64,000 nucleotides of DNA, taken from assembly GCA_965287045.1 (NCBI GenBank), contig OZ336880.1, positions 40,982,001 to 41,046,000 on the forward strand, given 5' to 3'. Shown here one piece after another: positions 1,401-56,700 of the stretch. Within the stretch, counting starts at the first letter, position 1. Each line of letters begins with the position of its first letter. Source of the DNA: Carcharhinus amblyrhynchos. Its lineage: Eukaryota. The notes under the pieces were generated by a model. The model saw only the letters and a program-made list of their open reading frames with translations. It was not told the DNA's origin and ran no database searches. The position numbers and the translations under genes were made by a program.

Positions 1401-1978
1401 TTCTCCATATAGCAGCTTCCAGGAAGTGGTTGTTCTCGGTGAAGCAACTCCTCCCAGGATTTGGATCTACAAGCTGCAGGTGAAAGGCTGCAGGAGGTAC
1501 TGGTCTGTGCTAAGAATGGGAGACATTAGACAGGGAGGAAAGGAGTGAAGTGGTGGAGTGGTGGCAGGTATTAGGGGAAAAGGAGAGATTCTGCAACGGT
1601 TCTGGAATGGGTGAGCTGGTATGGAACAGGAGAGTGGGAAAGGTCCTGCTGGAGTGCAGGTGGGGGAGCATGTTGTGCATATATGAAAGGGCAGGGAGGT
1701 GGTGTAGAGGTGTGAATGGACTTGGGCGAGAAGAAAGAGAAGGTTTTAAAGGGAGAGGTCAGTAGAGTCAATGGAGAATTCCTGGAGGGCACATGAGGGT
1801 ATCAATGATAAGATGGAATGATGACATTTAAAGGGGCACTAGAAGCCAATAGGATAAGGATGCGGTGAAATGGAATGAAGGGGTGCTGAGGATTGTTGGA
1901 AGGAATGGGGAAAGTGATGCGGATTTTGGGGTTGGCAAGATAAGGGGGCATGAGAGGATTAGGGGAAGATAAGGGGGC

Positions 1979-3685
1979 ATGAGGGCATTAGAGGATGAGA
2001 AAGGGGACCTAGTGGTAGGGGATGGGGATATGGCTAAGGTATTGAATAACTTTTTTGTTTCTGTCTTCACGGAGGAGGACGTGAATAATTTGCCGGGTGT
2101 TAGCGATGGAAAGGTGGTAGGACTGAAGGGTCTCGATGACGTTACTGTTACTAGAGAGGCGGTGCTCGACAGACTGGAGGGGCTGATTGTGGACAAGTCC
2201 CCAGGACCGGATGGAATGCATCCGAGGGTTCTGAAAGAAATGGCGGAGGTGATAGTGGATGCCTTGGTGGTTATTTTCCAGACGTTGCTGGATTCCGGGG
2301 AAGTGCCGGATGATTGGAAAACGGCTAATGTTACGCCGTTGTTTAAGAAGGGTGCCAGGCAAAAGGCGGGGAATTATAGGCCGGTTAGTTTAACGTCTGT
2401 GGTAGGTAAAATGTTAGAATCTGTCATTAAGGAGGAAATTGCAAGGCATCTTGAAGGGAATTGCTTGATAGAGCAGACGCAGCACGGTTTCATTAAAGGG
2501 AAGTCGTGTCTGACAAATTTACTGGAGTTCTATGAGGATGTGTCTAGGGCAGTGGATAGAGGAGAGCCGGTGGATGTGGTCTTTCTAGATTTTCAGAAGG
2601 CGTTTGACAAAGTACCTCACAAGAGGTTATTGCAGAAGGTCGAGGGACATGGAGTTGGGGGTAGGGTGTTAACGTGGATAGAGGATTGGTTGTCAAATAG
2701 GAGGCAGAGAGTGGGGGTCAACGGGTGCTATTCGGATTGGCGGATGGTGACTAGTGGAGTGCCCCAGGGATCGGTGCTGGGGCCTCAGCTTTTTACCATT
2801 TATATAGATGATCTGGAGGAGGGAACCGAGTGTAGGGTGTCGAAATTTGCTGATGACACCAAGATTGGGGGAACGGCAAATTGTGCGGAGGGTGTGGAGA
2901 GTCTGCAGAAGGATCTAGATAGGCTGGGCGAATGGGCCAGGAAATGGCAAATGGAATTTAATGTTGGCAAGTGTGAGGTGGTCCACTTTGGTAGGAAGAA
3001 TGGTAGGAAGGACTATTACTTACGGGGCGAAAAACTGCAGCAGGCGACGGTGCAGAGGGACCTCGGGGTCCTTGTGCATGAGTCGCAAAAACCCAGCTTG
3101 CAGGTGCAGCAGGTGGTCAGGAAGGCGAATGGGATGCTGGCCTTCATAGCGAGGGGGATTGAATATAAAAGTAGGGAGGTCTTGCTGCAGCTGTATAGGG
3201 TATTGGTGAGGCCGCAGCTGGAGTACTGTGTGCAGTTTTGGGCGCCGCACCTGCGCAAAGATATTTTGGCCTTGGAGGGAGTGCAGAGGAGGTTTACTAG
3301 GCTGATACCGGAGTTGAGGGGGTTGAGCTATGAGGAGAGGCTGAATAAACTAGGCTTGTACTCATTAGAGTTTAGAAGAATGAGGGGAGATCTCATTGAG
3401 ACGTATAAGATGATGAATGGGATGGATAGGATAGAGGTGGAGAGACTCTTCCTGCTCAAAAAAGACAGTAGGACTAGGGGGCACAGCCTCAGGATAAAGG
3501 GGGGGCGGTTTAGAACGGAGTTGAGGAGGAACTTCTTCACTCAAAGGGTGGTGAATCTCTGGAATTCTCTGCCCGTTGAAGTGGTGGAGGCTGCCTCGCT
3601 AAATATTTTTAAGACGCGGGTTGATGGGTTTTTGATAAGAGAGGGGATTAAGGGTTATGGGGAGAGGGTGGGAAAGTGGAACTGA
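1979..3685 (+). CDS. CR1 ORF2 reverse transcriptase (truncated, no endonuclease), 568 aa
   Basis: Uninterrupted ORF in the track with non-LTR RT motifs. Confidence 0.85.
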   Translation: MRALEDEKGDLVVGDGDMAKVLNNFFVSVFTEEDVNNLPGVSDGKVVGLKGLDDVTVTREAVLDRLEGLIVDKSPGPDGMHPRVLKEMAEVIVDALVVIFQTLLDSGEVPDDWKTANVTPLFKKGARQKAGNYRPVSLTSVVGKMLESVIKEEIARHLEGNCLIEQTQHGFIKGKSCLTNLLEFYEDVSRAVDRGEPVDVVFLDFQKAFDKVPHKRLLQKVEGHGVGGRVLTWIEDWLSNRRQRVGVNGCYSDWRMVTSGVPQGSVLGPQLFTIYIDDLEEGTECRVSKFADDTKIGGTANCAEGVESLQKDLDRLGEWARKWQMEFNVGKCEVVHFGRKNGRKDYYLRGEKLQQATVQRDLGVLVHESQKPSLQVQQVVRKANGMLAFIARGIEYKSREVLLQLYRVLVRPQLEYCVQFWAPHLRKDILALEGVQRRFTRLIPELRGLSYEERLNKLGLYSLEFRRMRGDLIETYKMMNGMDRIEVERLFLLKKDSRTRGHSLRIKGGRFRTELRRNFFTQRVVNLWNSLPVEVVEAASLNIFKTRVDGFLIREGIKGYGERVGKWN

Positions 3686-3778
3686 TCCACGACAGATCAG
3701 CCATGATCTCATTGAATGGCGGGGCAGGCTCGAAGGGCTAGATGGCCTACTCCTGCTCCTATTTCCTATTTCTTATGT
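1979..3778 (+). mobile_element. CR1 LINE copy 1, 5'-truncated, with intact RT region and 3' UTR
   Basis: RT motifs KSPGPDG, DFQKAFDKV, GVPQGSVLGP, FADD; 3' end 'gatggcctactcctgctcctatttc...ttcttatg'. Confidence 0.95.
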
Positions 3779-5733: not shown

Positions 5734-8700
5734 GTACAGAAGTGAGAGTACTTTCACCTGTATGGTTTTCTCATATATGTTACTAATGGTAACTTTAATG
5801 TTCCACGGGCTTTTTCCAATAACAAATAATGTCATCTCTGTTTTTTGTTTTTTCATTGTTTTATGTGGTTTGTTCTGGTGATAATCTTGTGTGGTTTTAT
5901 CTTTACATTCTGATTTTTGTACCAGTCTTTGTAGTAGTGTTTTTGTATTTTATGTGTTAATATTTGTGTCATCTTATTCATCTTATTCTACACTCTTTTT
6001 AAACTTAAACTTATATGTTTTTGACCTTTATCTAAAATTCTAAAACTTTTTCTTCAACCTCTGAAGCTTTCAAGAAGATTTTACATGAAGAGACTATTGA
6101 AGTTGACAAGACTGTTCCGTATGAGAAAATTATTGAGCACGATGAGATGATCTTACCTGAAGAAACAATTCAAACTGATGAGACAATTTTACCTGAGGAA
6201 ATTGAGCATGATGAGATATTATATGAGGAAAGTGCTGAGTACGATGAGATGATATCTGAAGAAACTGTGCAGGATGCTGATAGGATTTTACCTGAGGAAA
6301 TTGTTGAGGCAGATGAGGAGATTTTAGATAAAGAAATTGTTGAACCTGACAAGGTGACTTCATACGAACAAAGTGTTGAGTTCTATATGGGTTTACCTGA
6401 GGACACTGCTCAGCTTGAGGAGATTATTTTACCCAAGAAAATTATTGAGGCTGGTGAGAAGACTTTACATGAAGAAATTGTTGAAGCAACACTTCCAGAA
6501 AAAAAGAAATTTATTTCAGAGAAAGGTATAGAACTATTTATTAGAGGATTATACTTTAATCAGCTGCAACATCTCATAACCAATGGAAATGTCTGTGATT
6601 TTTAAAATTTTATTTATATTCTCTGTGGGCCCTCTGTTTACTCACAGTACTGCTGTCTACAATATTGACACCTATATTTCAGATGTTCTCTAGTTACACT
6701 GGCTCTATTATTTCCTGTCTTTTAATTTTAATACCGTATTGTAATAGTTATTGAGTAGTGAAAGAGTTTGTGAGTTCAGTCATTTTTACAAATTCCCCAG
6801 CAAACCTAAACTTTGCCTAACTAGCTAACTAAAAATTCACATAAGTAACAGTTTAATATTTGCCAGATGAAGCAAACAGTCTCTTCCAGTAGGGACATCC
6901 TCCCATTATCTGAGCTTAGAGAATTTAAACCCTGACTTCCAAGAGCCAAAATTGGAGACTAATCAACTAAAACTGTGCAGTGTAACGTAAAGAAGTATTA
7001 GGAATCGTCTACCCGCTCTGAGATCATTTCACATGGTACAGTATTGACTTTCTGAGTACAAATGAAAAAATTCCATGGAGTAACTAGCACTCAAAGGTTA
7101 TTTGTTTAACATTTTTTGAATGAAGTTAAAGAAATATGTTTACTGTTTCTTAAGTATCTCACATGTTCAGTTGCCTGTTTTTGATAATAATAGAAATTTT
7201 GTATACATTCACTAAATATTTAAACAAAATATTTTTTGAAGTGGCTCCAATTACTGAGAAGATTGAACCTAAAGGTGATGTTCTAGTCACTGCTCCAGTG
7301 AAGCAAGATTTGGAACCAGTAGAAGGTATACAAATCAATGTCACTCATTGGCTTGTGTCATTGGTGCAAAATCCATGAAACTTTCAACATTTCAATGTCT
7401 TTCACTTCCATTACATCTCTTCATCTGCATTTCATCTTTCTTGTGGTTCATTATTTCATTGCTTAATTGTCTATGCTTGCTTTCAACTGTTCTTCATTTT
7501 AATTCTGTCACTCAGGCCTTGTTCTTACAATCTAATTAGTAAAGGAGCATTTGTACTGAAAGAAAAATTTTCTGGCCACATACAAGATACGACTATGAAA
7601 AATGAAGTTCAAACCCCCAACCTATCCAATTACTTATTTTGGTTTGTTTGTCATGAACAATAGTTAGCAGGTTACGCAATTTTAATGTGAGTAATATTTC
7701 CTCCACGACAGCAAAGAATAAACAAGAATTTTAACTGTCCAAGGACTCTATCAAGACCATTGCACAATTGACCAATCATGTGGCATGCTTAAACCCTAAG
7801 GAAAAGTGTACTTCCCAAGTTTTTCATCCCTCTGACCTGGGTAAACTGGCAAAATTCAGCATCAAGTGGAAAGTTGGGAAACAAATGCTTGTCAAAATTA
7901 GACTGATGCTGAACTCTAATAGTTTGATGCACTCTAGCTGTTGAACCAGGGAATAATTTGGGATAATATTCCATGTAATTATGCTTTTCAAGAGTTGACT
8001 TTAATGGTAATAAAATCTTTGAATTGTTTTTAAAGTGCCTGAAACTGAAGAGGTACCTGCTACAACACTTCCTATTTCTGCTCCAGGACCAGTCAAGAAA
8101 CCCCTTAAAGGTACAATTTATCAAAAGCTTGAACCTTAATTTACAATGGCAAATTTTAAAATACCTTACTACATAATATGTTGATATACAGTTTAGTATT
8201 TTTTTTCCTGAATGTTAAATGGTAAAGTTATGCAGAATTTAATTGCACAGATTTCTAAATGTTGTGTATTGGTTGTATCAAATTGTCTTCAGTCTATTTA
8301 AAAAGTTACAATTCATGTATCTTGTCTCTTGTGATCCCTTCTGTTAATGTGTTTATTTGGAAATTTTGCTGTCTATGGGTATGTTTTACAATGTGTTTAA
8401 TTTGGTGAACTCACCAATTTAGTTTGGAGATGATGACATTGTTTGGTTTTGTTTAAATGTTAGACTGTTCTTTTACGGAATTGCAAAAAAAGTCCTTTTT
8501 GATGTGTCACTAAATTATATATGAAACCTTTATAGCTGCAGAACAATTCAAGCCATCTTTGAAACTAAAACCTACAGTCAAAGTTCCAAAGGAAGTAGAA
8601 GATATAGAAATTTCAGTACTGAAGAAAATTAGTAAGCTTCCCAAGGAAGAGAAAGATGAAGATGAGGGCATTATATTAAAAAAGGTGGATAGCTCTCCTA

Positions 8701-11700
8701 AAGAAGAAGACAAGTACATAGGGGTAGAACTTAGGAAACCGATTAAAGGTCCTGAGGAAGTGGAAGATGAAGAACATGTACCACGAAAGAAACCAGATGT
8801 AATCTTAAAAGAGAAAGAAACAGAAAGAGAAATAATATTGCAGTTGGTTGATGAGATTCCTAAAATAGATAAAGATTATGGAAAAGGTGTATCAATAAAG
8901 AAATTAGATAAAATTTCTATTGAACAAGATGATGCATACAAAATGTTACCAAGGAAAGGTACCAAAGTACAATCCAAAGAAATGGAGGAGGAGCCAGGTA
9001 CACCACTGAAGAAACCTGATAAGATCACTAAGCAAAAGGAAGAAGCGGAAAAGATATCACTAAAAAAGCGTGACACAGTCCCTAAAAAAGAAACATTAAA
9101 AGAAAAACGCATAATATCAAAGAAACTACCCAGTGATGAAGAAGATAGAAAAAAGCAAATAATATTGGAAACAGTTGGTGAAGTGCCTAAAATTGAAAGA
9201 GGCATAGAAAAGACTGTGCATTTAACCAGAACAGAACCAGTTCCTATGAAGGTAGAAGACAGAGAAAAGATATCTGTGAAGCGTACCCTAGTTGCTGATA
9301 CAGAGAAGGATAAGGAGAAGATAATCCCATTGAAGGAACCTAGTCAAAGCCCTATAGAACAGAAAGATGAAGACAAACATTTGGCACTGAGAAAAGATAG
9401 GACATCGCCTCAGCTTGCGGAGGAAAAGGAACACCCTAGTCTCAAGAAAGTTGACCTTCCTAAAATTATTCATGAAAAGACCAGGATTGCACCATCTCTT
9501 GAAGAAGAGGCACCCAAAAGTATAGAAATTTACCCAGTCGATAGGATACCCAGGAAGACTGCTCCTGAAGAGCCTGCATCAAAATTGGTACGAGAGGTTA
9601 CTGCAGAAGAGGCTGCCGATATTACCAAGACAACATATGAAAAGAAAATGGTACCCTCCAAAGAAAAACCTCATGAAACATCTTTAAAGATTGGAAAAGG
9701 GAAAGTTCTGGTTTCAAAAGAAGAACAGGAAACAGCTTTACTGAAAAAAATTCCCTCAAAAGGAAGTGCATTTGATGCAAAAGAACCACAAAAGATTCAC
9801 AAATTACCTGAAAAGGATGTGGCAGCTTATAAAGAGAAAACACAAATTATCCCTACTAAAATGGATAAAGGGAAAGTATCTGACGAACAGGAACCAGTGC
9901 AGTTAGAAAAATTCCCCTCGAAAGAAATTCTGTTTGAAGATAAGGAATCAGAAAAACTAAAAAAAGTTCCTGAAAAGACATCAGTGATCCCTACAGCGAA
10001 AGTTGATGAAACACATTTTAAAATTGCAAAAGGAAAAATTCCTGTTTTGGAAGAACAGAAAGATCACATAGAGCTGAAGAAAGTTCCTTCAAAGGAAGTT
10101 GTAATAGAAGAAAAGCCACAGAAAGTACCAGTAAAGAAAGAACTGACACCCAGGGATATATCTGATATTGCACATCCTAAAATTAGAAAGGGAAAAGTAC
10201 CAGTGTCAGAAGAAAGAGATCAAGCACAGGTGAAGAAGATTCCTTCAAAAGAAGCTGCAGTAGAAGAAAAGCCACAGAAAATACCAATAAAGAAAGTACT
10301 GACACCCAGGGATATACCTGATACTGCACATCTTAAAATTGGGAAGGGAAAAGTACCAGTATCAGAAGAAGAAAAAGATCAAGCACAGATAAAGAAAATT
10401 CCTTCAAAAGAACCTGCAGTGGAAGAAAAGCCACAGAAAATACCAATAAAGAAAGTCCTGACACCCAGGGATATACCTGATGCTGCACATCTTAAAATTG
10501 GAAAAGGAAAAGTGCCAGTGTCAGAAGAAGAAAAAGATCATGTACAACTGAAAAAGATTCCTTCAAAAGAACTTCCGGTGGAAGAAAAGCCACAGAAAAT
10601 ACCAGTAAAGAAAATACTGACACCCAGGGATATACCTGATACTGCACTTCCTAAAATTGGAAAGGGAAAAGTACCAGTGTCAGAAGAAGAAAAAGATCAA
10701 ATACAGCTAAAAAAGATTCCTTCAAAAGAACTTGTGATGGAAGAAAAGCCACAGAAAATACCAGTAAAGAAAGTACTGACCCCTAGAGATGTGGCACACC
10801 TTAAAGCAGGCAAAGGGATTCCATCAGCTGTTGAAAAAGATTTGGAACTAACACAAATTAAAAAAGTTCCCTCTGAAAGCATCTCAACAGAAGATGACTA
10901 CGAAGTAGAATCAGAAGAAATGTCAATAGAAGAATTACGGGACAAAGGAGACTGGGAATGGGAATTAACTGAAGAAGAGGAGGAATATGGCTCATCTGTT
11001 GACTGGGAGCATGAAGATGATGAAGAGTTTGAGGGTGCAGTTGAGACTCCTTCAAAGCCTTACAAACAACGAGGTGAGATGGCTGCTGCACATCTACCAA
11101 ACTGATTGTTCATATCTTGTGCTTTGGAAAATAGATCAGTGTTCTTTGTTTTTGTTTGTGTTCATCTTTTGTCAAACATCTTTGTTTGTCCTCGCAATGC
11201 AGCTTGTGTTTATGTGCATGATGTATCATGGTTGTCAAAAGTCTGTCAAAAGGTTGTTAAAATTCATGTCTGTTTCTTGTGTTTGGTCCATGTGGTCCTA
11301 TGCTTCCCAAAGAAAAATTGTCTTAATTTGCTTTGTCGTTTGCTATTAACAGAGCTATGGGTGAATTAAAATCATTTTTCATTTACATCATTGAAGGCAC
11401 AGGCTTCAGCAGACCTTCCAAATAGTCTGGTTTCACATTTTTCATTCAAAACTAATTATGTCTTTTTCTTCATTTTACATCTCCTCTGGCCGCATGAGTA
11501 AACCTTTGTTTAGTGTATTAAACAAGTGGTAGTGCCATTTTTGATTTTTCTTTTGCCTGTATTACAGATTATCAATATGTAAATATATTTTTCCATCTAA
11601 ATACAATACACTTTCTGAGCCTCATTGTTTCCACCCTAAGGTTATAACAGAAGCATCTTAACATATAATAATTTGGAAGGATAGTCTTGACATGCCGATA

Positions 11701-20700: not shown

Positions 20701-23700
20701 GTGTGTACTATGTTTTCCTGAGGACAGAAGGGGAACAAATCTCTGCCTAATGGACATCTGACCCCCTGATCATCACGCATTCCTCTGGCAAGGTAATGGG
20801 GCCTGCTGGTTGTCCATTCTCATGACATTTGGACAACAGTGGAAGCATGAACCTTAAACTTGGCGGCCACAGGCATTCAAGCCTCATCTTGTATCTGATG
20901 CTGGGCCTTACACTTCTTTCACCTGTCTTCCTACTCCTTCCTCTCACTGGGGCACATTGCATGTTGCACTCATGAGAGCGATTTTGTTCCAAACATTCAG
21001 TGATGCTCACCCTGGAAACATGGAAGAGGTAGTTGACCCTCTTTCTTCATTCACCTTTGTTCATGTGAGCCATGTGCCACTCCCTGCATGATGCTGATCG
21101 CTGATGAGGCTAGAAGTCTGAAGCATGAACTTGAGATGCTGTTGCAAGAGAGAAAGTTGAGGCTGAAGGCATTGTCAGGATTCCCTTTTGCCTCTGCTAC
21201 ATTGAAGCTTCTGCCTTGTAGTCACTGTCACTCAGAAACGGTTCCTGGACCCCTGACTCTATCAGCTGGTTGGCGTCTTCCTTCCAGCTCCCATTGCAGA
21301 ATTGGCTGGGCCTGGACACCATTGCTTTCATTATCCAAAGCCACCATGTAATTATAGTTGGCCAGTTATCCCTGCCAGTAATGACAATGCCACCCACTCC
21401 AGGTCTGTCACTGGTTGGCACACTACGATGACTAAATTCTGCCTGATATGTTGTGTACAATCCTCTGTGTAACAGAACAGATAAAGAAATGATTTTAAAA
21501 AAGAGGGCATCAGGTATTCCTGATGATTCACTTCTTGAAATGTTTTAACTGTTAACAGGTGTGAGACTCTTTCTCTTCAGGCAGTAAATTAGCTGTTTGT
21601 CTCTCATCCACAGAGGCTGATCCTTATTTCACTGTGAAACTCCAAGATTATACAGCTATCGAGAAAGATGAAGTAATTCTCGAATGTGAACTCAGCAAGG
21701 ACGTGCCTGTAAAATGGATGAAGGATGGCAAGGACATCATAGCTTCAAAGAAAGTTTCAATGAAGGCTGTTGATAAACGCCGTATTGTGACGATCAAAAA
21801 AGTTGACAATAAAGACAAGGGTGACTATGAATGTGACTGTGGAACGGACAAGACAAAAGCCACTTTGAATATTGAAGGTATCGAACTTCTGATTGAGTAC
21901 AAGTAGATTCTTCAACAATTATAAAGTAACATTCTTTCCAGATGTTCAGTTTAAACATCCATTTTTAACATTGTCTGCAGCTCGCATCATCAAGATAGTG
22001 CATCCATTGCATGGTGTAGAAATCTTTGAAGGTGAAACTGCGCACTTTGAAGTGGAGATCTCAGAAACAGATGTGCATCCTCAATGGAAGCTGAAGGGCG
22101 AAAGTTTGTTTATGTCACCTGTAAGTTGTTTCCTTCATTTATCTCAAAGTTAAGCATTCCTACCTCAATGTTGGAATTATTTGGTAATAAGTGATTTCAC
22201 TTCAGAATTATGTTAATTTAATTAAACATTATAAAATCAACTTCCTAATAATGTTCAGTAGAACTCAAGGCCCTGAATATTTGTTCCTCAAGAAAGTTTT
22301 GGGGTAAATTTTCTACAAATAAACATCAACCTAAAATATCTTGGGTGATTTTGTATTGGCAGCAATGTGAGATTATCGAGGATGGCAAGAAACATCTCCT
22401 TACCCTCTACAATTGCAAGCTAAGTGATTCTGGAGAAGTTTTCTTCCAGGCTGCTAATGCTAAGTGCGCAGCTAATCTGAAAGTCAAAGGTAATTTTTAA
22501 TACATTTGGAAGAATTTGTTACTTTTTTCTGAAATTTGAATAATTGTAATTCAGGCTCGTAATGTAGTACTATTGTTCCATTAATTGTATGTGTGATTTA
22601 CATATGTTATATCAGCATATTAAAATATATATATAGGTATGTAATACATATTGTATATATCTATTTGAATAATTGGTCATTTTTTACTTCCTGCACTCCC
22701 ATTCAGAAATTCCACTCACTTTCATTGTACCACTTAATGATGTGAAAGTATATGAGAAAGATGAAGCGAAGTTTGAGTGTGAAGTGTCCAGAGTGCCCAA
22801 GACTTTCCGTTGGCTAAAAGGAATTGAGGAGCTTAAACCTGATGAGAAATTTGAAATTCTATCAGATGGGACAAAACATATGTTGACTGTTAAACAGGCT
22901 GCATATGATGATGAGGCAAAATATATGTTTGAAGCAGAGGACAAGAGGACAAGTGGCAAACTGATTATCCAAGGCAAGAGAATGGAGCAAAAACAATGTC
23001 TGAATTCCTTAGTTAGTTTTCTTGGTGAGACGGCTTGCATTTGATTAAAAATTCCTTTCTTCATAGGCATTCGACTTGAATTTACCAAACCTCTTGAAGA
23101 CCAGACTGTGAAAGAGCGTGAAAGTGCAGAATTTGTCACTGAACTTTCTCATGACAACATACCGGTTGTGTGGTACAAAAATGACAAACGACTGCATCCA
23201 AGTAGGTCCGTGACTATGAAAGATGAGGGTAAAGTCCACTCCATTACATTCAAAGATGTGACTATTGATGATACTTCCCTCATCAAAGTCGAAGCTATGG
23301 CTAAAAGTTCGGAGGCCAAGCTTACTGTAATCGGTAGGTATTGCATATGGAAACGTGTGAATGAATTTTGCTCACCAAATTTTGACACATTACATTTGTT
23401 GTTTGACTTTTTCTCTAATTTGCCTTTTTTTCTGGTTTTCTTAGAGGGTGACCCATACTTTATAAACAAACTGCAGGATTATACAGCTGTAGAAAAGGAT
23501 GATGTTATCTTCCAGTGTGAGATCAGTAAATCTGCTGCTCCAGTTAAGTGGTTTAAGGATGGAAAAGAACTGATTCCTTCAAAGAATATTCAGATTAAAA
23601 CGGATGGGAAGAAGCGTATACTGATTATTAAACGGGCTCAGAAGAGTGACCAGGGACAATATTCATGTGACTGTGGCACTGATAACACATCAGCCAAACT

Positions 23701-26700
23701 AAACATTGAGGGTAAGAGTTTATTGATAGCATTTAGATACCCAATATCCTTTGCCCTTTGTATCTGTTTATTGTGGTGAGTGAACTTGCATTTTTAGTAA
23801 ATTAGATGAAATTATTTTTAGTTACTAGTAATGTACTTTTCCAGGAAAATAACATTTGCACGTTATTTTGCTTCAGAACGTGATATTAAGATATTACGTC
23901 CACTGTACAGTGTTGAAGTCACAGAAACAGAAACTGCTCGTTTCGAGACTGAAATTTCTGAAGAAGATGTACATGGCAATTGGATGTTGAAGGGGGAGAA
24001 ATTGCATCCATCTCCTGTAAGTTTTAAACATTAGACAAGCGCTGAGATTTCTCTTGTCTTCTTTCTCTCTTTCTTTCTTGCTGTCTTCCTTCCTTAAAAG
24101 TTTTTCTTTTTTTTCCTTAATTTAGGATATTGAGATTAAAAAGGAAGGCACAAAACATTTTCTTACACTGTACAATGTGCACATGGATCAAGCTGGTCAA
24201 GTTGAATTCCAGGCTGCCAATGCCAAAACCGATGCCCATTTGAGAGTTAAAGGTAAAGCTGCTGAATATCATAGATTAAGAATGTTAATAGCCAAGAAAT
24301 ATGCACTTCTGAAATTCTTAAGACATTTTGGCATTTTATGAGGGATCTATATTTCTCTGCATGTTATGAATATCCAGAGCAATCTACAATGATGTTTTCC
24401 ATTATAAACCACTACAGGTTTCCAAAATTATTGACCACCTCAATAAACCCTTGATAAAGGGTTACATTGTTGGCAGCTTAAAGCAGAGAGCTGCCATATT
24501 TATTGTTTTGTTATTGAATAATCCCCTTTTTGGCAGCTGCTAAACTGCTGGTGGATGGAATTGGGCAATTGCCAAGCACACAGCTGTTTAACTAAACAGA
24601 TCTGCCAGTACTCTTGGATGGGTTGTTCCTCAAGTAGAAATTGGGGGGAACGACCACGGTAAGCAGTTTGAGTGTGATGTAGGTCAGGTTTACTGTAAAA
24701 TTCTTCAGAAAGTAAAATGTCGCGATACAGATTTTGAATTCACCCGTTGTTTTTATGGCCAGGCCTTGGTCATCTGGGTGGTTGAATAGTCACACTCTGT
24801 TGGGACAGCTGAAATGCATCTTTCATTTTCTTGAGACTAATGGGCACACCCATCTCTTTTGCATTTAAAGCTCGGGTGATTGGTTTACTTCGGCCCCTCA
24901 AGGATGTGACTGTAACCGCTGGAGATTCAGCTACTTTTGAATGTGAACTCTCATACGAAGGAATTGAAGTGCAATGGTTCTTGAAGAACAAGTTACTTGA
25001 GCCCAGTGAAAAGGTATGATGAAAAATACTAAAACAAAAATAATATCCATGAGTTACCGTGTGAATGTGCATGGTTGGCTACACTATGCAAAGCAACCTT
25101 TGTTTTAGAGTTTAGAAAAAAAACTTGAGCTATTAATGCCTGACTACCGAAACCATGATTTTGCAAACCAAATATCCTTAACGTAAATACCCATGACAAA
25201 CTTATTCCACTTTCAATTATCTGAACTTTATATTATCTAGAAAAATAAGGCAAGGCTGAACTATAGTTGAAATAAAGCATTAGAAATTTAAACAATGTTA
25301 AATTGATGATAATTTCTTAGTATTTTGCAACAGTTGAATTACATCAATATCTTTTCAGGTGTCTGATAATCCCCCATTGTTTTGAAAGTTGGAAAAGATA
25401 GTTTGTATGAAACCGTGATTGTTATTTGAACTGGACAGTTGCCTACTTTAAACATGACTTGAATAATCATAAAGTGAATCTATTAATTATATAAAATTCT
25501 TATTTTGGATCAGGTTGTTACACGCGCTGAAGGCAGAGTGCACACTTTCACCCTCAGAGACGTCCAGTTGGAGGAGGCTGGTCAAGTCAAACTCACTGCT
25601 AAGGACTTCGCAACATCCGCTAAACTTATTGTTAAAGGTGCGTAATGCATTATGCCAATTATTTTCTTTCCAAAATGATATACTCGGCAATGTACTTTAA
25701 GACTGATGTGCTGAATTTTCATTTACATCTTTTACAGAGCCACCAGTTGAATTCACTAAACCTCTGGAGGACCAGACAGTTGAAGAAGAAGCCACTGCTA
25801 TATTGGAATGTGAAGTCTCCAGAGAGAATGCCAATGTTATATGGCTTAAGGATGGAAAAGAAATTCATAAAGGCAAGAAGTATGATATAATTGCTGATGG
25901 AAAAGTTAGAAAGCTTATTATCCACGACTGCAAGCCTGAAGATGCCAAAACATATACATGTGATGCCAAAGACTTCAAAACTTCCTGCTTCCTCACTGTG
26001 GAACGTAAGTAGAATGGTGTCCAACGTTCATCCTCTCACATTCAGAGTTACATTAATGAAAATGCGTATGTGGCTATTTCTCGACCAGTAAGACTTTGTT
26101 TCTTTCACAGCTCCTCGTGTTGAATTTATAAAGCCTCTCACTGATCTTGAGGTGAAAGAAAAAGAAGTGGCCAGATTTGTATGTGAAGTCTCACGTGAAA
26201 ATGCAAAGGTTTGCTTTTTTGCTTATGTCATTCTATCAGTATTTATTTTTTAAGTTTACTTCTTTGATGAAAATTAAAACGCAATTATTTTAATTTAAAC
26301 AAACTTATGGGTTAAATAACAATCTCACCTGCTGCGAGACACATATGCTTTCATTTCTTTATCAATTGCAGAGTGAGGTTACAATTAATGAGACTTCATG
26401 GTGAAACAGATGTTTTTGTATATGTTCCTGTATAATGGTCTCTTCCACCCTTTCGGGTCTCAAAATTAATAAATTATCAGCATTTCCATTTTTCTTGGGG
26501 TTGCATATATGTTCAAGGTCATTTACTAATCCTCATTTTTCCTGCACATGTGCAGGTGGTGAGCGCTAAATTATACATTCTAGACCTGGTAATAGCCCTG
26601 GGACACTCCTGAATCCAACCTTCTTGCCAAGTGCCATCAACAAGCTCCCCCCACTCCCCCGCCACCAGTCCAGGCCTTCTTTGCCAGCTCCATCCCGTAT

Positions 26701-35700: not shown

Positions 35701-38700
35701 AAGGCTTGAGGTGTTGAAGGATTTCGCAATAATTTTATTACTGATATGGATGATAAGATAGACAAGATAGAAATTAGACTCTATACTCTATCTGGGAGTG
35801 AGTGGATGAAGAGACAGACAGAGAACTGGATATTGATAACTTCTGAAGAGAAAATGGAGATAGATGGTGGAGAGACTGGAGGGGCTGATTGTGGACAAGT
35901 CCCCAGGACCGGATGGAATGCATCCGAGGGTTCTGAAAGAAATGGCGGAGGTGATAGTGGATGCCTTGGTGGTTATTTTCCAGACGTCGCTGGATTCCGG
36001 GGAAGTGCCGGAAGATTGGAAAACGGCTAATGTTACGCCGTTGTTTAAGAAGGGTGCCAGGCAAAAGGCGGGGAATTATAGGCCGGTTAGTTTAACGTCT
36101 GTGGTAGGTAAAATGTTAGAATCCATCATTAAGCAGGAAATTGCGAGGCATCTTGAAGGGAATTGCTTGATAGGGCGGACGCAACACGGTTTCATTAAAG
36201 GGAAGTCGTGTCTGACAAATTTACTGGAGTTCTATGAGGATGTGTCTAGGGCAGTGGATAGAGGAGAGCCGGTGGATGTGGTCTTTCTGGATTTTCAGAA
36301 GGCGTTTGACAAGGTACCTCACAAGAGGTTATTGCAGAAGGTCAGGGGACATGGAGTTGGGGGTAGGGTGTTAGCGTGGATAGAGGATTGGTTGTCAAAT
36401 AGGAGGCAGAGAGTGGGGGTCAATGGGTGCTATTCGGATTGGCGGATGGTGACTAGTGGGGTGCCCCAGGGGTCGGTGCTGGGGCCTCAGCTATTTACCA
36501 TTTATATAGATGATCTGGAGGAGGGAACCGAGTGCAGGGTGTCGAAATTTGCTGATGACACCAAGATTGGGGGAACGGCAAATTGTGCGGAGGGTGTGGA
36601 GAGTCTGCAGAAGGATCTAGATAGGCTGGGCGAATGGGCCAGGAAATGGCAAATGGAATTTAATGTTGGCAAGTGTGAGGTGGTCCACTTTGGTAGGAAG
36701 AATGGTAGGAAGGACTATTACTTACGTGGCGAAAAACTGCAGCAGGCGACGGTGCAGAGGGACCTCGGGGTCCTTGTGCATGAATCGCAAAAACCCAGCT
36801 TGCAGGTGCAGCAGGTGGTCAGGAAGGCGAATGGGATGCTGGCCTTCATAGCGAGGGGGATTGAATATAAAAGTAGGGAGGTCTTGCTGCAGCTGTATAG
36901 GGCATTGGTGAGGCCGCAGCTGGAGTACTGTGTGCAGTTTTGGGCGCCGCACCTGCGCAAGGATATTTTGGCCCTGGAGGGAGTGCAGAGGAGGTTTACT
37001 AGGCTGATACCGGAGTTGAGGGGATTGAGCTATGAGGAGAGGCTGAATAAACTAGGCTTGTACTCGTTAGAGTTTAGAAGAATGAGGGGAGATCTCATTG
37101 AGACGTATAAGATGATGAATGGGATGGATAGGATAGAGGTGGAGAGACTCTTCCCGCTCAAAAAAGACAGTAGGACTAGGGGGCACAGCCTCAAGATAAA
37201 GGGGAGGCGGTTTAGAACGGAGTTGAGGAGGAACTTCTTCACTCAAAGGGTGGTGAATCTCTGGAATTCTCTGCCCGTTGAAGTGGTGGAGGCTGCCTCG
37301 CTAAATATTTTTAAGAAGCGGGTTGATGGGTTTTTGATAAGAGAAGGGATTAAGGGTTATGGGGAGAGGGCGGGAAAGTGGAACTGAGCCACGACAGATC
37401 AGCCATGATCTTATTGAATGGCGGGGCAGGCTCGAAGGGCTAGATGGCCTACTCCTGCTCCTATTTCTTATGTTCTTATGTTCTTATGAAAGTTCAGAGG
37501 AATCAAGATAGGTTGAGTTTTGATAGATATTTATTGTTTTAACTCTAAAATATTTGTGACCGTATACTTGCTGATGGTTGAAAAAATGTGCTCAGAATAC
37601 TTGTACTGTTTTATATTACACAGCTTTTCATTTTTGTCATTCCAGGTTACTGGTCTGAAACCAGGAGTGAAATATTATTATCGGGTATCGGCAGAAAATG
37701 CAGCAGGTGTTTCAGATCCAGCTGATGCCCTTGGCCCACTAACAGCTGATGATCCTCATGGTAATGGAAGTCCTTTTCTAAATACAAATATATTAAAGGC
37801 TACAAAATTGAGCTTTTTAAAAAAATTATGATATTTATAGCTTTTCAAGACTGATTGCACTTATCTCTTTCAGTGGCTCCTACCCTTGACCTGAGTGCAT
37901 TCAAAGATGGTCTTGAGGTCATTGTTCCAGAACCACTTAAGATTCGCGTTCCTATCACTGGCTACCCTATACCCACTGCAAAGTGGGCTAAGGATGAAAC
38001 ACCTATTGAAAGTAGTGATCGTGCGAAGATGCAAACAACTGCTGCATATACACTATTGGTCATTTCTCCCAGTGAGCGCCCTGATAAGGGACTATACAGC
38101 TTGACACTGGAAAACGATGTGTCGTCTGTCTCAGGAGAAATTAAAGTGAATGTAATTGGTAAGTATCTGAATATTTTCAAAAAAATAAACATTTTAATTA
38201 ATTGTTCCAAGAGAATTTCACGATAGTTTGTATTTATATATCACCTTTAACACTGAAAACATCTCAAGACTCTTAACAAAGACAGGAAGAAAATAAATAC
38301 ATTATGTGGGCATGTGCCATGCCTTCAACCTGCAAGTCAGGAGAAGTTATTGAAAACGTAATTAAAAGGACGGGTTTTGAAAAGGTTTTTAAAGATCGGG
38401 AAAAAAAGCAAAGACGAGAAAAGATTTAAGGAAAGCATTTCAGAAAGTGGGGTTAAACCACCTGAAGGTGCTGAAAGTAATGATGAACTAAAGGGACTTC
38501 AAAAAAAGGAGAAAGCGAGATACAAATGGTCAGCGAGAACGACTGACTGATATAGAAAGAGTTCTAATCCTTGGAGAAATTGCAGAATCGGACATGCAAA
38601 GCTGTGGAAGAATTTGAAAAATGGGATCATTATTTTAAATTGCATGCATAATACAATCATGGAATCAGAGTTTGTCAGAAATGCTGTGGTTGATGGAAGA

Positions 38701-44700: not shown

Positions 44701-47700
44701 ATGCATGCTTATTGCCTTGTCTATCACCCCAAATTCAAAGCGGAGGCACCTACTTGGAATCTTAATGGCTGAGCTACTCATATGATCTGACAGGTGTTAA
44801 TTGTTGCACAAACCAAATCTCATAGGAAAACTTGGCTCTGGTAATAAGATGATAAATTTACTGAATTCAGAAGCCACAAATTCCAGCTACCCTTTCCGAA
44901 TTTAAAATATCTTATCAACAGAAGAATTCTTATCAACAGAAGAAAAAGAAAACTTAACACTCAAGATTACTTTTACACGGTTACAATTATTCGTATAAAA
45001 CATTCTCCCAAAAAGACTTCTGACTTGGTCAGGCTCACAAGTAAACACTCTTTGCATAACAATCTCTTTTAACTATAAACATTTCAGTAGTATTACTATA
45101 AACCAAACCCGCAATTACTGTAGGAAATATATATCTCAGGGCTTCTCACTCACTCCCACTCTACTGTGGAAATCCAAGAAACTTCAAAACAAAGCCCTGC
45201 TTTCTGAGAAACAGGCACTGGCTGGAATGGTTCCTTTAGCTCTTTTCCCAACACAGAGCAGCACCCCAGTACGTCTCATACAGCCACTTCAGTTATGCTC
45301 TCAAAAAGTCTACTCAAATATTACTTTTTCTTCTTTCATTTTTTTTGCCCTGTTAATGCACCTTGGGACATTTTACTTTATTAAATACATTATACAAATA
45401 TAAACTGTTTCTAAGTGATCTTCTGATTAATTGCTGAACTTATGAATGGTGACTTATGATTGATTAGTTTTATTAAGGCACGAAAGGAAGAAAGGTTTAG
45501 TTGGAATGTGACTGATCAGAATTGTTTGCGCAGCGGTGGAATGTAATTGCTGAAAGCTGCCAACAATTAACCAGTTAGCAAGAACAAAGACAATCTTGCC
45601 ATTATAGTCATTGCAGATGTCAAAGAATTAGATAGATATTGTGAGACAAACTAATGTGCGCCCATACATTTTTGCAACCAACAGAGTGAAAGGACTAACT
45701 CCGAAGAAGAAGTATAAGTTCCGTGTTTTGGCAGAGAACCTAGCAGGCACTGGCAAACCTAGCAATGAAACAGACCCAATCCTAGTGAAGGATCCTATAG
45801 GTATGTATACAATTGGCTTATCAAATGAAGTCTCATAACATTTTATGTTAGGGTAAATTTTGCCAGACCCTTCGCCAGCAACATGCAACCAGCCAAATCA
45901 GAAATTCACGTAGTTTTTCATTATGCATTGGCTCTGTGCAAGGCCTGATAGAATTGACCAATATTTTTCCTGTAAATTCATTTATAGACCCACCATGGCC
46001 CCCTGGAAAGCCTAATGTTAAAGATGTCATGAAGACTTCAGCGTTCTTAACTTGGAATAGGCCAGAACATGATGGAGGGGCAAAGATTGAGTCTTACGTT
46101 GTTGAATTGCTGAAGAGTGGAACAGACGAATGGGTGAGAGTAGCTGACGGCATTCCCAGCACTGAATATTTCTTGAAAGGGCTTATGGATAAACAAGAAT
46201 ACTCATTCCGTGTTAGAGCTGTTAACAAAGTTGGGGAAAGCGAACCCAGTGAACCCAGCGATCCTGTGCTGTGCAAGGACAGATTGAGTAAGTTCCACTC
46301 AATTTATGTATTTTGTATATCACATAGCAGCCTTCAATTACCAAATTAATGCAAAAAGTCATAATCTTTTGAGTGTGAGGATTGTTTTCTTCTCCACAGA
46401 TCCTCCTTCGCCTCCACGCTGGCTTCAAGTTGTTAATATCACAAAAAATACTGCGGATCTTAAATGGACAGCTCCAGAAAAGGATGGTGGTTCTCCAATA
46501 ACAAACTATATTGTGGAAAAAAGAGATGTAAGAAGAAAGGGTTGGCAGACTGTTGACACAACGATAAAAGACACCAACGCTACAGTTACACCTCTTTCAG
46601 AAGGTTCCCTGTATGTATTCAGGGTCGCTGCAGAAAATGCAGTTGGACAGAGTGAATACTGTGAACTGGAAGATTCAGTACTTGCCAAAGATACCTTCAG
46701 TAAGCTAATTTATGCATATTATTTCCCTGTGTATAATAATTTATTTCTTTGAATTATTTTTATCTTACATATACATTTTGATTTTTCTCAAGCAACACCT
46801 GGACCACCTTATGCTCTTACGGTTGTTGATGTAACCAAGAGGCATGTTGAACTGAAATGGGAAGCTCCCAAAAATGATGGTGGAAGACCAATACAGAGGT
46901 CAATATCATTTTTTTATCCAGTGCATTTTCTGAAAATCTCTTTCTTTCCGATAATGTGCATTAATGAATGCTATTGAATGTTCATATAGGTATGTAATTG
47001 AAAAGAAAGAGAAGTTAGGAACTCGCTGGGTTAAAGCTGGGAGGACTCCAGGACCAGAATGCAACTTTAGAGTCACTGATGTTATTGAGGGCACTGAAGT
47101 ACAATTCCAAGTCCGTGCTGAAAATGAAGCTGGCTGTGGGCATCCAAGTGAACCAACTGATATGCTTACAGTTGAAGACCCAACTAGTAAGTAGAAAGTG
47201 ATATTAAGAATGTTACAATATGAGTCCCCTTAGTTTGAAAACAAATAGCAGATAACATTTAATTTTTATTTTGTGTCTAGGTCCTCCATCTCCGCCTCTT
47301 GAATTACATGTTACAGATGCAAGCAGAGAACACATATCGATTGAATGGAAGCCACCAGATAAAAATGGTGGCAGCCCTATTATTGGTTATCATGTTGAAA
47401 TTTGCGAAGCAGGAACAGAGAAGTGGATGAGAATTAATTCTCGCCCAGTAAAGGAACTGAAATACAAAGCAGTAGAAGGCATTATCCCTGATAAGGAATA
47501 TGTCTTGAGAGTTAGAGCTGTTAATGCCATTGGAGCAAGTGATCCATCAGAAATTTCAGAAAATGTCATAGCAAAGGATTCTGACTGTAAGTACAGCTTT
47601 CTTTTGAAATTATCCCTTTTTTGGTCTTAAAATGTTGATTTTCCATAAATAGAATTAACTTTTCCAATAGACTTAAAAATATACTTATTTTGATAGGTAA

Positions 47701-53700: not shown

Positions 53701-56700
53701 TCAGAATACATTTTGTAAGTTATGATTAACATATTTTTCTTCATGATTTACAGAGGAACCAGATGTTACATTGGAAGTCGGTGCACCAGATTTTCTCAAT
53801 TGCTATGCTGGTAAACCTTTGAGAATTCCAACTGTTGTCACTGGCCGTCCTACTCCAAAGATTACTTGGGAGTTTGAAGGATTAGCTAAGACAGTGATGA
53901 AGGTATGAAGTATCCTAATTATATTTAGATATGTATGTCTGTTCCAGGAAGAATTTTTTTCAAAAATTTACTTATTGGATGTGGGCATCGCTGGCTGGGC
54001 CAGCAGCTATTACTCATCCCTAATTGCCCTCTAAGCTATCCAAATTTAAAATGCCTTGGACATGTGGGGCTGATGATGATCGTACTTGGTGAATGTGCTC
54101 TAGAAGGTTACAATAGAGAATTGCATTTCAAAGCTCTGGTATGACGAAATAATAATTGGCTGGCATGGTGGCACAGTGGTTAGCACTGCTGCCTCACAGC
54201 ACCAAGGAGCCGGGTTCAATTCCAGCCTTGGGTGACTGTGTGGAGTTTGCATGTTTTCCCCAAATATGGGTTTCCTCTGGGTGCTCCAGTTTCCTCCCAC
54301 AGTCCAAAAATGTGCGGGTTAGGTTAATTAGTCATGCTCAATTGCCCTTTGGTGTCAGGGGGATTAGCTGGGTAAATACATGGGGTTATGGCCTGGGTGG
54401 AATTGTTGGTGCAGGATTGATATGGGCCAAAAGGCCTCTTTCTGCACTGTAAGGATTCTATGATTTTAGGAATATACTGCTACAATGGAAGAATTGTTTA
54501 ATTCTGTTCGGTGTTCCTTGATAACTGTTGTCTTTTTATTTGTGAGGCTGGTGAAGTTGATTTGATTTTTGCTCCATCTGGCTTGCACTTATAAGACTGC
54601 TATGAGTGGCATGAGAGGTTCTCGACCTACTGATGCTTCCCGTGGAAATGTTTTGTTCACAAACTCTGTACCAAAACATGAAGAATTGTGCCAATTCATA
54701 CAAAACCTTGGGTGACCAGTAAAGAATATCCTTAGGGTAGATTTCATCGGTACCACCAAGTTGTGAACCATCCCAGGTGCAGGAAGGCAAATATGTGTAA
54801 TGCAGTTTACCTTAATTTTTCTTCCAATTAAATTAAAGGAGAAAAATTAGACAGACTCCATCTATGAGCCTCCCAGCTCAGTTCTTCTCCCTGAAAGAAC
54901 ATCCTGATCTCCACATGTACCCCAAAGTTCATTGAGCAACATTTATCCATCTCAGTTATACAGTTGCAGACTGACCGGGTCTAAGTAGATACCTTTCTAA
55001 TGGCTGTTTTTGTCACTAATTACCACTAATATAGTATCAGATATTGGTTCACAGAAATGCAACAATACATTATGTTACATATATCAAATATTAGAATATG
55101 ATACTATCTTGCATACAACACTGCTCCCCATATTTTTGGTTCTGCTCACACTGTAAACTACTGCAAGAGCTATTCTAATTACTCCATATACTAATTTTGG
55201 AAGTCAAGTGGAAAGTTAACTAAAGGTTTTCAATGTAACAATTGAACATGTCAGATTTAAAGTTAATTGAAATGTACAAATTAGCATACATAATTCAAAT
55301 GAAAATTCCTAATTTTGAAAGATTTCAGGTATCAGAGGTGATTAAGTGCATTCACAATTGGCAGAAATTGAGGGATATTACTCCAGTTATTTAAGGTGAT
55401 ACCAGATGAAATGATTTCTATGATTGTTGGCCCGATTATACAGAGAATTATCTCCAACAAAGGACTCTGAAATGCAGATGTGCCTGATAGTTCACTTCTT
55501 CTTTTGGTGTTCATGTGCAATCATGTACAAAACAAAGGGGAAAATGTCAACAATTGTATTGCATTACGTTTGGGTGATGTGCCTGCGGTGAATATCTGGA
55601 AGTATATGGAAGCTATGAGGCGTGGGTATGGGGTTGGCTGTATTGGTCAGTGTGTGAGGGAGGATTTGGAGCATCTAAATGTTAGGTACGTGTCCCAATG
55701 GGTCAGTGAGAAGCCTGTGAAACATTGAGCAGCATGAGAAGTTGCTAGTACAATGGATAAGGATTTAATGTGAAGATGCATTTGCTGACCTTAACCACCT
55801 GCGTAAAATCATTGAACTTTTTGTGGCACTGAGCCGGGTTGTCAGACAGACTCTGGGAATTGACATCCATGGCCACATATTCAGAAGGTAGACCAAGAAG
55901 GCCTCCTAACCTCCAATAGAGACACCACTTTCTCCTGTCTACTTTCAACACCAACGCCTTCACCGTTTAACAACCCAGTAGTCTCTCTCTCTGGCCTGTT
56001 GTCCCATTTGCAATCTTCCTTCTTCCAAAGAAAGACTTTGGTGGGGATTTTAATGCAGCTTGCAAGAGCAGGGACCATGGCATGTGGGTGATTCAATTAA
56101 AGATTTCAAAGAGGCATTAAACTGTTATCTGAAAAGGATGAATGTGCAGGGTTACAGGAAAGACAGGAGAATGACATTCAGTGAATTGCTGATTTGGAGA
56201 GTTGGTGTAAACACCATGAGTGTACCATCTGGAGGAGGGAACTGAGTGTATGGTGTTGAAATTTGCTGATGACACCAAGATTGGTGGAAAGGCAAATTGC
56301 GCGGAGGGTGTGGAGAGTCTGCAGAAGGATCTAGATAGGCTGGGCGAATGGGCCAGGAACTGGCAAATGGAATTTAATGTTGGCAAGTGCAAGGTGGTCC
56401 ACTTTGGTAGGAATAATGGTAGGAAGGACTATTACTTATGTGGCGAAAAACTGCAGCATGCAACGGTGCAGAGGGACCTCGGGGTCCTTGTGCATGAGTC
56501 ACAAAAACCCAGCCTGCAGGTGCAGCAGGTGGTCAGGAAGGCTAATGGGATGCTGGCCTTCATAGCGAGGGGGATTGAATATAAAAGTAGGGAGGTCTTG
56601 CTGCAGCTGTATAGGGCATTGGTGAGGCCGCAGCTGGAGTACTGTGTGCAGTTTTGGTCGCTGCACTTACGCAAGGATATTTTGGCCTTGGAGGGAGTGC

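Follow-up and report, generated by a model that had tools for sequence, protein, structure and literature searches.

Cronos is a short titin isoform (about 2.2-2.3 MDa, with a unique N-terminus) of relevance to heart disease. In the portions of the literature available, it has been shown just in zebrafish, mouse and human, its cardiac importance is disputed, and one proposal attributes the greater severity of titin truncations beyond exon 240 to its position. Zebrafish Cronos has its transcription start site (TSS) 110 nt upstream of exon e116 and its Met 7 residues upstream, while the mammalian TSS lies 256-257 nt upstream of human exon 240 (mouse exon 223) and the Met 12 residues upstream; the published leaders are contiguous with the exon (PMC4720518, available sections). 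For mammalian Cronos, the TSS, chromatin marks and protein have been demonstrated (PMC4720518 and PMC7478974, available sections). The isoform is named solely in zebrafish and mammals in the available sections of PMC12854356, PMC7912658, PMC11033294, PMC13031707, PMC5068190 and PMC11128207; the word Cronos is absent from the accessible main text of the elephant-shark titin paper (PMC12241362) and of PMC12198301, and it does not occur in the supplements of PMC12854356. An earlier report of Cronos in a cartilaginous fish was not found in the open literature searched, and mapped control elements of the Cronos promoter were not found in the available parts of the literature searched.

We analyzed a 64,000-nt stretch of DNA, hereafter the window, which carries part of the titin gene:

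Whole window, + strand: titin, beginning at the end of its PEVK region and reaching into the A-band

A gene model curated by hand, with 73 exons (12778-63349), gave 5,928 codons with 0 stops, i.e., a reading frame uninterrupted across the distal I-band and A-band of the window, with the 3' end of titin lying beyond it. Donors were GT in 70 of 72 introns and GC in two (the GC-AG introns at 22974 and 32854), and acceptors were CAG (42), TAG (25) or AAG (5). An open frame at 8514-11102 (863 codons, Lys/Glu-rich, PEVK-like, without a Pfam match), inside which a 159-nt (53-residue) unit is tandemly repeated 4.6 times at 10051-10780, is a candidate for a very large spring exon immediately ahead of the distal Ig block, and a second frame at 6036-6602 (189 codons, Glu-rich, repetitive, without a Pfam match) is a possible additional PEVK-type exon.

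A first-pass annotation of the sequence had assigned the window to a probable cartilaginous fish, and both titin and a LINE element support that assignment. In a titin tree built from 130 columns around the junction and 6 rows, with Callorhinchus milii as the sole chondrichthyan reference, the window and C. milii were grouped (support 97/95) apart from two teleosts, a frog and a bird. Identity to C. milii titin around the junction was 82% (130 residues), so the window species differs from C. milii. For the LINE reverse transcriptase at 1973-3682, the closest named animal entries among the best 120 of 7,955 matches were mostly elasmobranchs, namely Chiloscyllium (66%), Hypanus (65% and 61%) and Mobula (60%), with birds, turtles and coelacanth at 42-55%; two entries labelled as bacterial, at 58-61%, probably stem from contamination. 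The window very probably belongs to a cartilaginous fish, and a shark or ray is the probable source. Three pieces of a CR1-like LINE lie in titin introns (2168-3778, 35870-37481 and 56227-57213) and are 93-98% identical, which indicates recent activity, and SINE-like copies of ~170-240 nt, 72-82% alike, occur at 14736, 16442, 27796, 35257 and 54157.

The part of the gene that corresponds to the known Cronos start comprises the following features:

24126..24252, + strand: exon orthologous to human exon 239 and zebrafish e115; ends ...AHLRVK, with a phase-1 donor at 24253
24253..24870, + strand: intron orthologous to the Cronos-promoter intron; GT at 24253, AAG at 24868-24870, 618 nt
24871..25013, + strand: exon orthologous to human exon 240 and zebrafish e116; Pfam I-set, with a zebrafish e116 guide match
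25514..25637, + strand: equivalent of exon 241, completing the first Ig domain of Cronos

The exon at 24126..24252 we take to be the second half of Ig domain I95, and that at 24871..25013 presumably forms the first half of I96, five domains past I27/I91. The whole first Cronos Ig domain is 84% identical to elephant-shark model P0094, and a PDB search with the first exon returned solely other titin and MyBP-C Ig domains and no structure for its own domain. At 618 nt, the intron at 24253-24870 compares with a median of 110 nt in the window; the phase-1 introns that follow exons 229 and 234, which split a domain in a similar way, measure 114 and 217 nt and lack an in-frame ATG. The intron after the exon-240 orthologue (25014-25513) is 500 nt long, 29% G+C and without a repeat; introns 228, 233 and 238, at the corresponding mid-domain position, span 109-242 nt.

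Since published Cronos primers and guides (supplement of PMC4720518; Zou et al., 2015) map to the flanking exons, the identity of this intron is independent of exon counting. The zebrafish e113, e114 and e116 guides had their best protein-level matches at 23477, 23894 and 24939 (ECELSY), in consecutive exons, and the e115/e116 junction primer, which translates as QLRVKAR, matched best to HLRVKAR across 24252/24871; the e115 guide failed to map to the matching exon, giving a mapping score of 4/5 guides and primers. Read by eye, the human/mouse e239 primer encodes SAHLRVK and the mouse junction primer KPRVIGL. The first-pass annotation had reached intron 239-240 by counting from the I84 exon as exon 225, and this count, whose anchor we assume to be I84, holds in the curated 73-exon model, where it makes the target exon 240 and puts the Ig/Fn3 junction block on exons 251-269. 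The junction block is described at exons 251-269 in the available part of PMC11040099. Primer and guide mapping, exon count and the I27 anchor (exon 21981-22120 matches titin I27 in PDB 1TIT, at 21983-22120) all confirm the correspondence. By these sequence comparisons, the intron at 24253-24870 is orthologous to human TTN intron 239-240, with the same phase in mouse and human, and to the zebrafish ttna (ttn.2) e115-e116 intron.

Like its zebrafish counterpart, this intron holds an in-frame Met just upstream of the exon:

24840..24870, + strand: candidate N-terminus specific to Cronos, MGTPISFAFK followed by the first base of an Ala codon, ending in the AAAG acceptor

The ATG at 24840 was verified to read stop-free into the exon as MGTPISFAFK-ARVIGLLRP, as the first-pass annotation had it. 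It stands 10 codons upstream, a distance between the 7 of zebrafish and the 12 of mammals. The zebrafish primers encode MSSPESK and then A, Lates calcarifer model P0006 reads MSSPQSK-ARVIGL, and the C. milii UniRef model P0094 begins MFSPTSK-ARVIGLLRP. The latter two are automatic gene models that run into introns, with generic names and without a Cronos description, and they stand for genomic ATGs and frames, not transcripts; each has the form of an unannotated Cronos-type start directly before ARVIG(L). All four, in a comparison of named protein models from which 58/66 and 81/82 matches without an organism name were left out, follow the pattern M-x-[S/T]-P-x-S...K then A-R, and the window carries three extra residues (FAF). 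Gly at position 2 is absent from the other species' peptides. MGTPIS (24840-24857) matches what we take to be the N-myristoylation pattern, M-G-x-x-x-S, a fit that is probably incidental.

Scored against the zebrafish, Lates and elephant-shark peptides, the window peptide reached 8.7, a value attained by 0 of 1,580 stop-free five-codon strings drawn from the remaining 71 acceptors; in-frame ATG peptides elsewhere in the window, 13 in all, scored -1.3 to -12, and none resembles the Cronos peptides. Pro at position 4 is found in intron 239 alone among the 14 introns with an in-frame ATG, and AAAG ends just 2 of the 72 introns. Because Lys followed by a phase-1 Ala at the acceptor forces AAAG, the AAG acceptor of the window is shared with zebrafish and mouse. 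The human Cronos peptide was reportedly given by Zaunbrecher et al. in 2019. The mouse peptide, SNTRHFVSSRKA (Swist et al., 2020; PMC7478974 supplement, available part), likewise ends K-A and otherwise agrees only in its start Met and final Lys; it has 12 residues (SNTRHFVSSRK after Met), without P4 or S6. Mouse and human Cronos peptides are just 58% alike (PMC7478974, available part), so tight constraint on the peptide is not universal.

The codons for Pro and Ser are rich in pyrimidines, so some of the resemblance between the peptides could be a by-product of constraint on the splice site, and shuffling the last bases of the intron within their own composition, with the pyrimidine bias kept, gave a P of only 0.013. 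Taken to its end, this reasoning would derive the ATG from a CTAAT branch point and the P, S and F codons from the pyrimidine tract, with no internal promoter at all. In-frame ATGs lie within 45 nt of the exon in 10/72 introns, AAG acceptors end 5/72, and the two coincide in 3/72; the first-pass annotation had relied on both features, which are indeed there, yet neither is telling alone, and the acceptor that it called weak is an AAG of just moderately weak overall strength (18th weakest of 72). In addition, half of the CTAAY motifs found close to acceptors of the window (4 of 8) have the form CTAATG, and intron 289 (59488-59694) mimics the layout with a branch-point-like TACTAATG, an in-frame ATG 25 nt upstream and an AAAG acceptor. 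The arrangement in intron 289, whose peptide MKYIFCFK-AVPG scores -9.7, is probably due to chance and serves as a control. We regard an origin of the candidate start by chance and splicing constraint as very improbable, given that the intron was fixed beforehand by orthology, that no control string or peptide came near the observed score, and that the enrichment of E-boxes in the intron (see below) is independent of the acceptor.

Several elements of splicing and translation surround the candidate start:

24835..24841, + strand: branch-point-like GACTAAT, 36-30 nt before the exon and ending on the AT of the start codon
24755..24868, + strand: out-of-frame upstream open reading frame (uORF) of 37 codons, overlapping the candidate start
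24814-24834, + strand: second uORF, 6 codons
24659..24762, + strand: possible 104-nt leader intron, with donor-like ACG/GTAAGC and acceptor-like ...GGCCAG
24537-24658, + strand: 122-nt pseudo-exon with an in-frame stop, following acceptor-like 24536 and closed by donor 24659

The zebrafish Cronos leader primer ends in GACTAAC just upstream of the ATG, a spacing estimated from a 38-nt morpholino distance (PMC4720518, available sections), so that GACTAA[C/T] stands beside the ATG in both species. The Kozak context of the ATG at 24840 is weak, with C at -3 where zebrafish has A. Upstream ATGs are present at 24618, 24677, 24717, 24755 and 24814, five within 256 nt of the exon, and in a long, unspliced leader the uORFs would make efficient initiation at ATG 24840 less likely; the mouse/human leader primer likewise carries an upstream ATG.

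Removal of the 104-nt segment at 24659-24762, a possible leader intron, would eliminate three upstream ATGs, the overlapping one included. Its donor-like site at 24659 scores 8.1 versus 5.5 for the real donor at 24253. With the acceptor-like site at 24536, which also scores like a real site, the same donor delimits the pseudo-exon, which opens with AAKLLVDG, resembling the end of a titin Ig strand. The leader-intron and pseudo-exon configurations, under thresholds set post hoc, each recurred at one other place in ~25 kb of other introns. The possibility of a coding first exon joined from donor 24659 to 24871 was rejected, there being no open ATG in the required frame and the next Met occurring 236 residues into the protein. 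It could be argued that a regulated cassette accounts for the length of the intron, with 24537-24658 acting as a poison exon or as a spliced non-coding first exon joined via donor 24659, instead of or besides an unspliced Cronos leader. As high as these sites score, and as rarely as a comparable pair recurs, we consider such a cassette highly unlikely: besides the post hoc thresholds, a donor like 24659 alone is expected 0.22 times per 618 nt (~20% chance), published Cronos leaders are contiguous with the exon (PMC4720518, available sections), and the conserved peptide would be left unexplained.

A bolder reading, which we think unlikely, combines these elements. The Cronos start codon would have been built into the branch point and acceptor (GACTAA[C/T]-ATG...AAAG) since the jawed-vertebrate ancestor, a 450-million-year dual code in which the non-consensus AAG acceptor and the K-A-R-V junction (equal to the V-K-A-R-V linker of full-length titin) were selected, and a lineage-new leader intron at 24659-24762 would remove the inhibitory upstream ATGs, giving a two-exon leader of a kind not found in the literature consulted.

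Further upstream, the intron carries the following motifs:

24534, 24581 and 24806: three palindromic E-boxes, CAGCTG
24446..24463, no strand given: GATA site in a 7-bp inverted repeat, AACCCTT-GATA-AAGGGTT
24470..24586, no strand given: candidate promoter-proximal motif cluster, with three copies of TGGCAGCT, two E-boxes and an NFI-like palindrome
24802..24825, + strand: third E-box, within a stretch resembling the mouse Cronos 5'-leader primer (16/24 identities)

The three E-boxes lie where the first-pass annotation had placed them and are enriched: P was 0.002 for three CAGCTG in 618 nt (2,000 dinucleotide shuffles), 1 of 33 other 618-nt intron tiles of the window held at least three, which puts P at about 0.002-0.03. 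Any CANNTG was at chance level (P=0.36). In an unbiased k-mer scan, AGCTG was the top 5-mer (9 versus 1.4 expected, family-wise P=0.002), 6 of its 9 occurrences stemming from the three palindromic E-boxes, and TGGCAGCT occurred three times within 24471-24538 (24471; 24489, reverse; 24531; family-wise P=0.046). The NFI-like palindrome at 24561-24575 has no second copy in the window (P=0.014, a post hoc finding); the factor names given here to motifs of the cluster (NFI, bHLH) are our assumption. The GATA site in its inverted repeat, also singled out in the first-pass annotation, is present but has no weight of its own as a promoter cue, since WGATAR (P=0.83) and a 7-bp inverted repeat with a gap of up to 4 nt (P=0.22) are both at chance level. 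MEF2, CArG and MCAT consensus sites were not found in the intron at 24253-24870. The cluster at 24470-24586 lies ~30-145 nt upstream of 24615, the position equivalent to the mammalian TSS, and 290-400 nt upstream of the exon.

Among five leader and peptide primers compared with the intron, only the mouse leader primer matched above background, and this likeness to the E-box-bearing mammalian leader is weak after five tests: 6 window sites on both strands reach at least 16 identities, and the P of ~0.02 alone becomes ~0.1. The three zebrafish leader/peptide primers gave no match above background in the intron, a difference from that species.

The intron contains no recognizable repeat, in agreement with the first-pass annotation. 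Self-BLAST within the window covered 4 of 618 nt and gave one 36-nt, 83% match, to intron 263; a transposon origin of the intron was rejected, as none of the window's SINE and LINE copies matches it. The 36-nt match (24450-24485 versus 45548-45582, reverse strand, E 8e-4) lies over the GATA/TGGCAGCT stretch and may be fortuitous, the relic of an old repeat or a motif that both introns have. An Rfam scan of the intron returned 2 matches (E 0.77-0.85) far below the gathering threshold, and a structured RNA or snoRNA in it was rejected on that basis.

The E-box cluster would be equally suited to an enhancer, and a vestigial Cronos, in which an ancestral start is still recognizable but no longer used or poorly translated and the intron acts mainly as a muscle enhancer, would accommodate it along with the weak Kozak context, the uORF overlapping ATG 24840, the three extra residues and the S-to-G change relative to other fishes. 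Intron sequence without constraint would hardly retain the frame, P4, S6 and the terminal K, and all of these persist in two lineages of cartilaginous fish with just 82% identity between their titin domains. An upstream ATG is, moreover, also found in the mouse/human leader primer, and we judge loss of the start in this lineage to be quite improbable.

We favor, with good confidence, the view that the intron at 24253-24870 holds a working cartilaginous-fish orthologue of the Cronos internal start. Transcription from this intron, the TSS position, the factors, translation and function are extrapolated from zebrafish and mammals, and promoter activity is likewise inferred. In such a working promoter, myogenic bHLH factors, possibly with NFI, would bind the E-box/TGGCAGCT cluster at 24470-24586 in muscle, and transcription would begin within the intron's 3' half, the most likely distance to the exon being ~100-270 nt. 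The leader would run unspliced into the exon-240 orthologue. The last 36 nt would serve twice: full-length titin would draw on them for its branch point, pyrimidine tract and acceptor, and Cronos for its start codon and peptide.

The first-pass annotation had suggested that Cronos may predate the split between bony and cartilaginous fishes, a suggestion supported by the start peptide conserved in zebrafish, Lates and elephant shark. The ancestor of jawed vertebrates probably had Cronos already. With Cronos known from both bony fish and mammals, the step back in time is modest and the surprise moderate. The E-box/TGGCAGCT cluster, the branch-point ATG and the AAAG acceptor are candidate elements for the Cronos promoter, and a cartilaginous-fish Cronos would offer a fish model with a single titin gene (PMC12241362, available sections). 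With its start peptide kept in two cartilaginous-fish lineages as well as in teleosts, selection has probably acted on the isoform from the jawed-vertebrate ancestor onwards, for ~450 million years.
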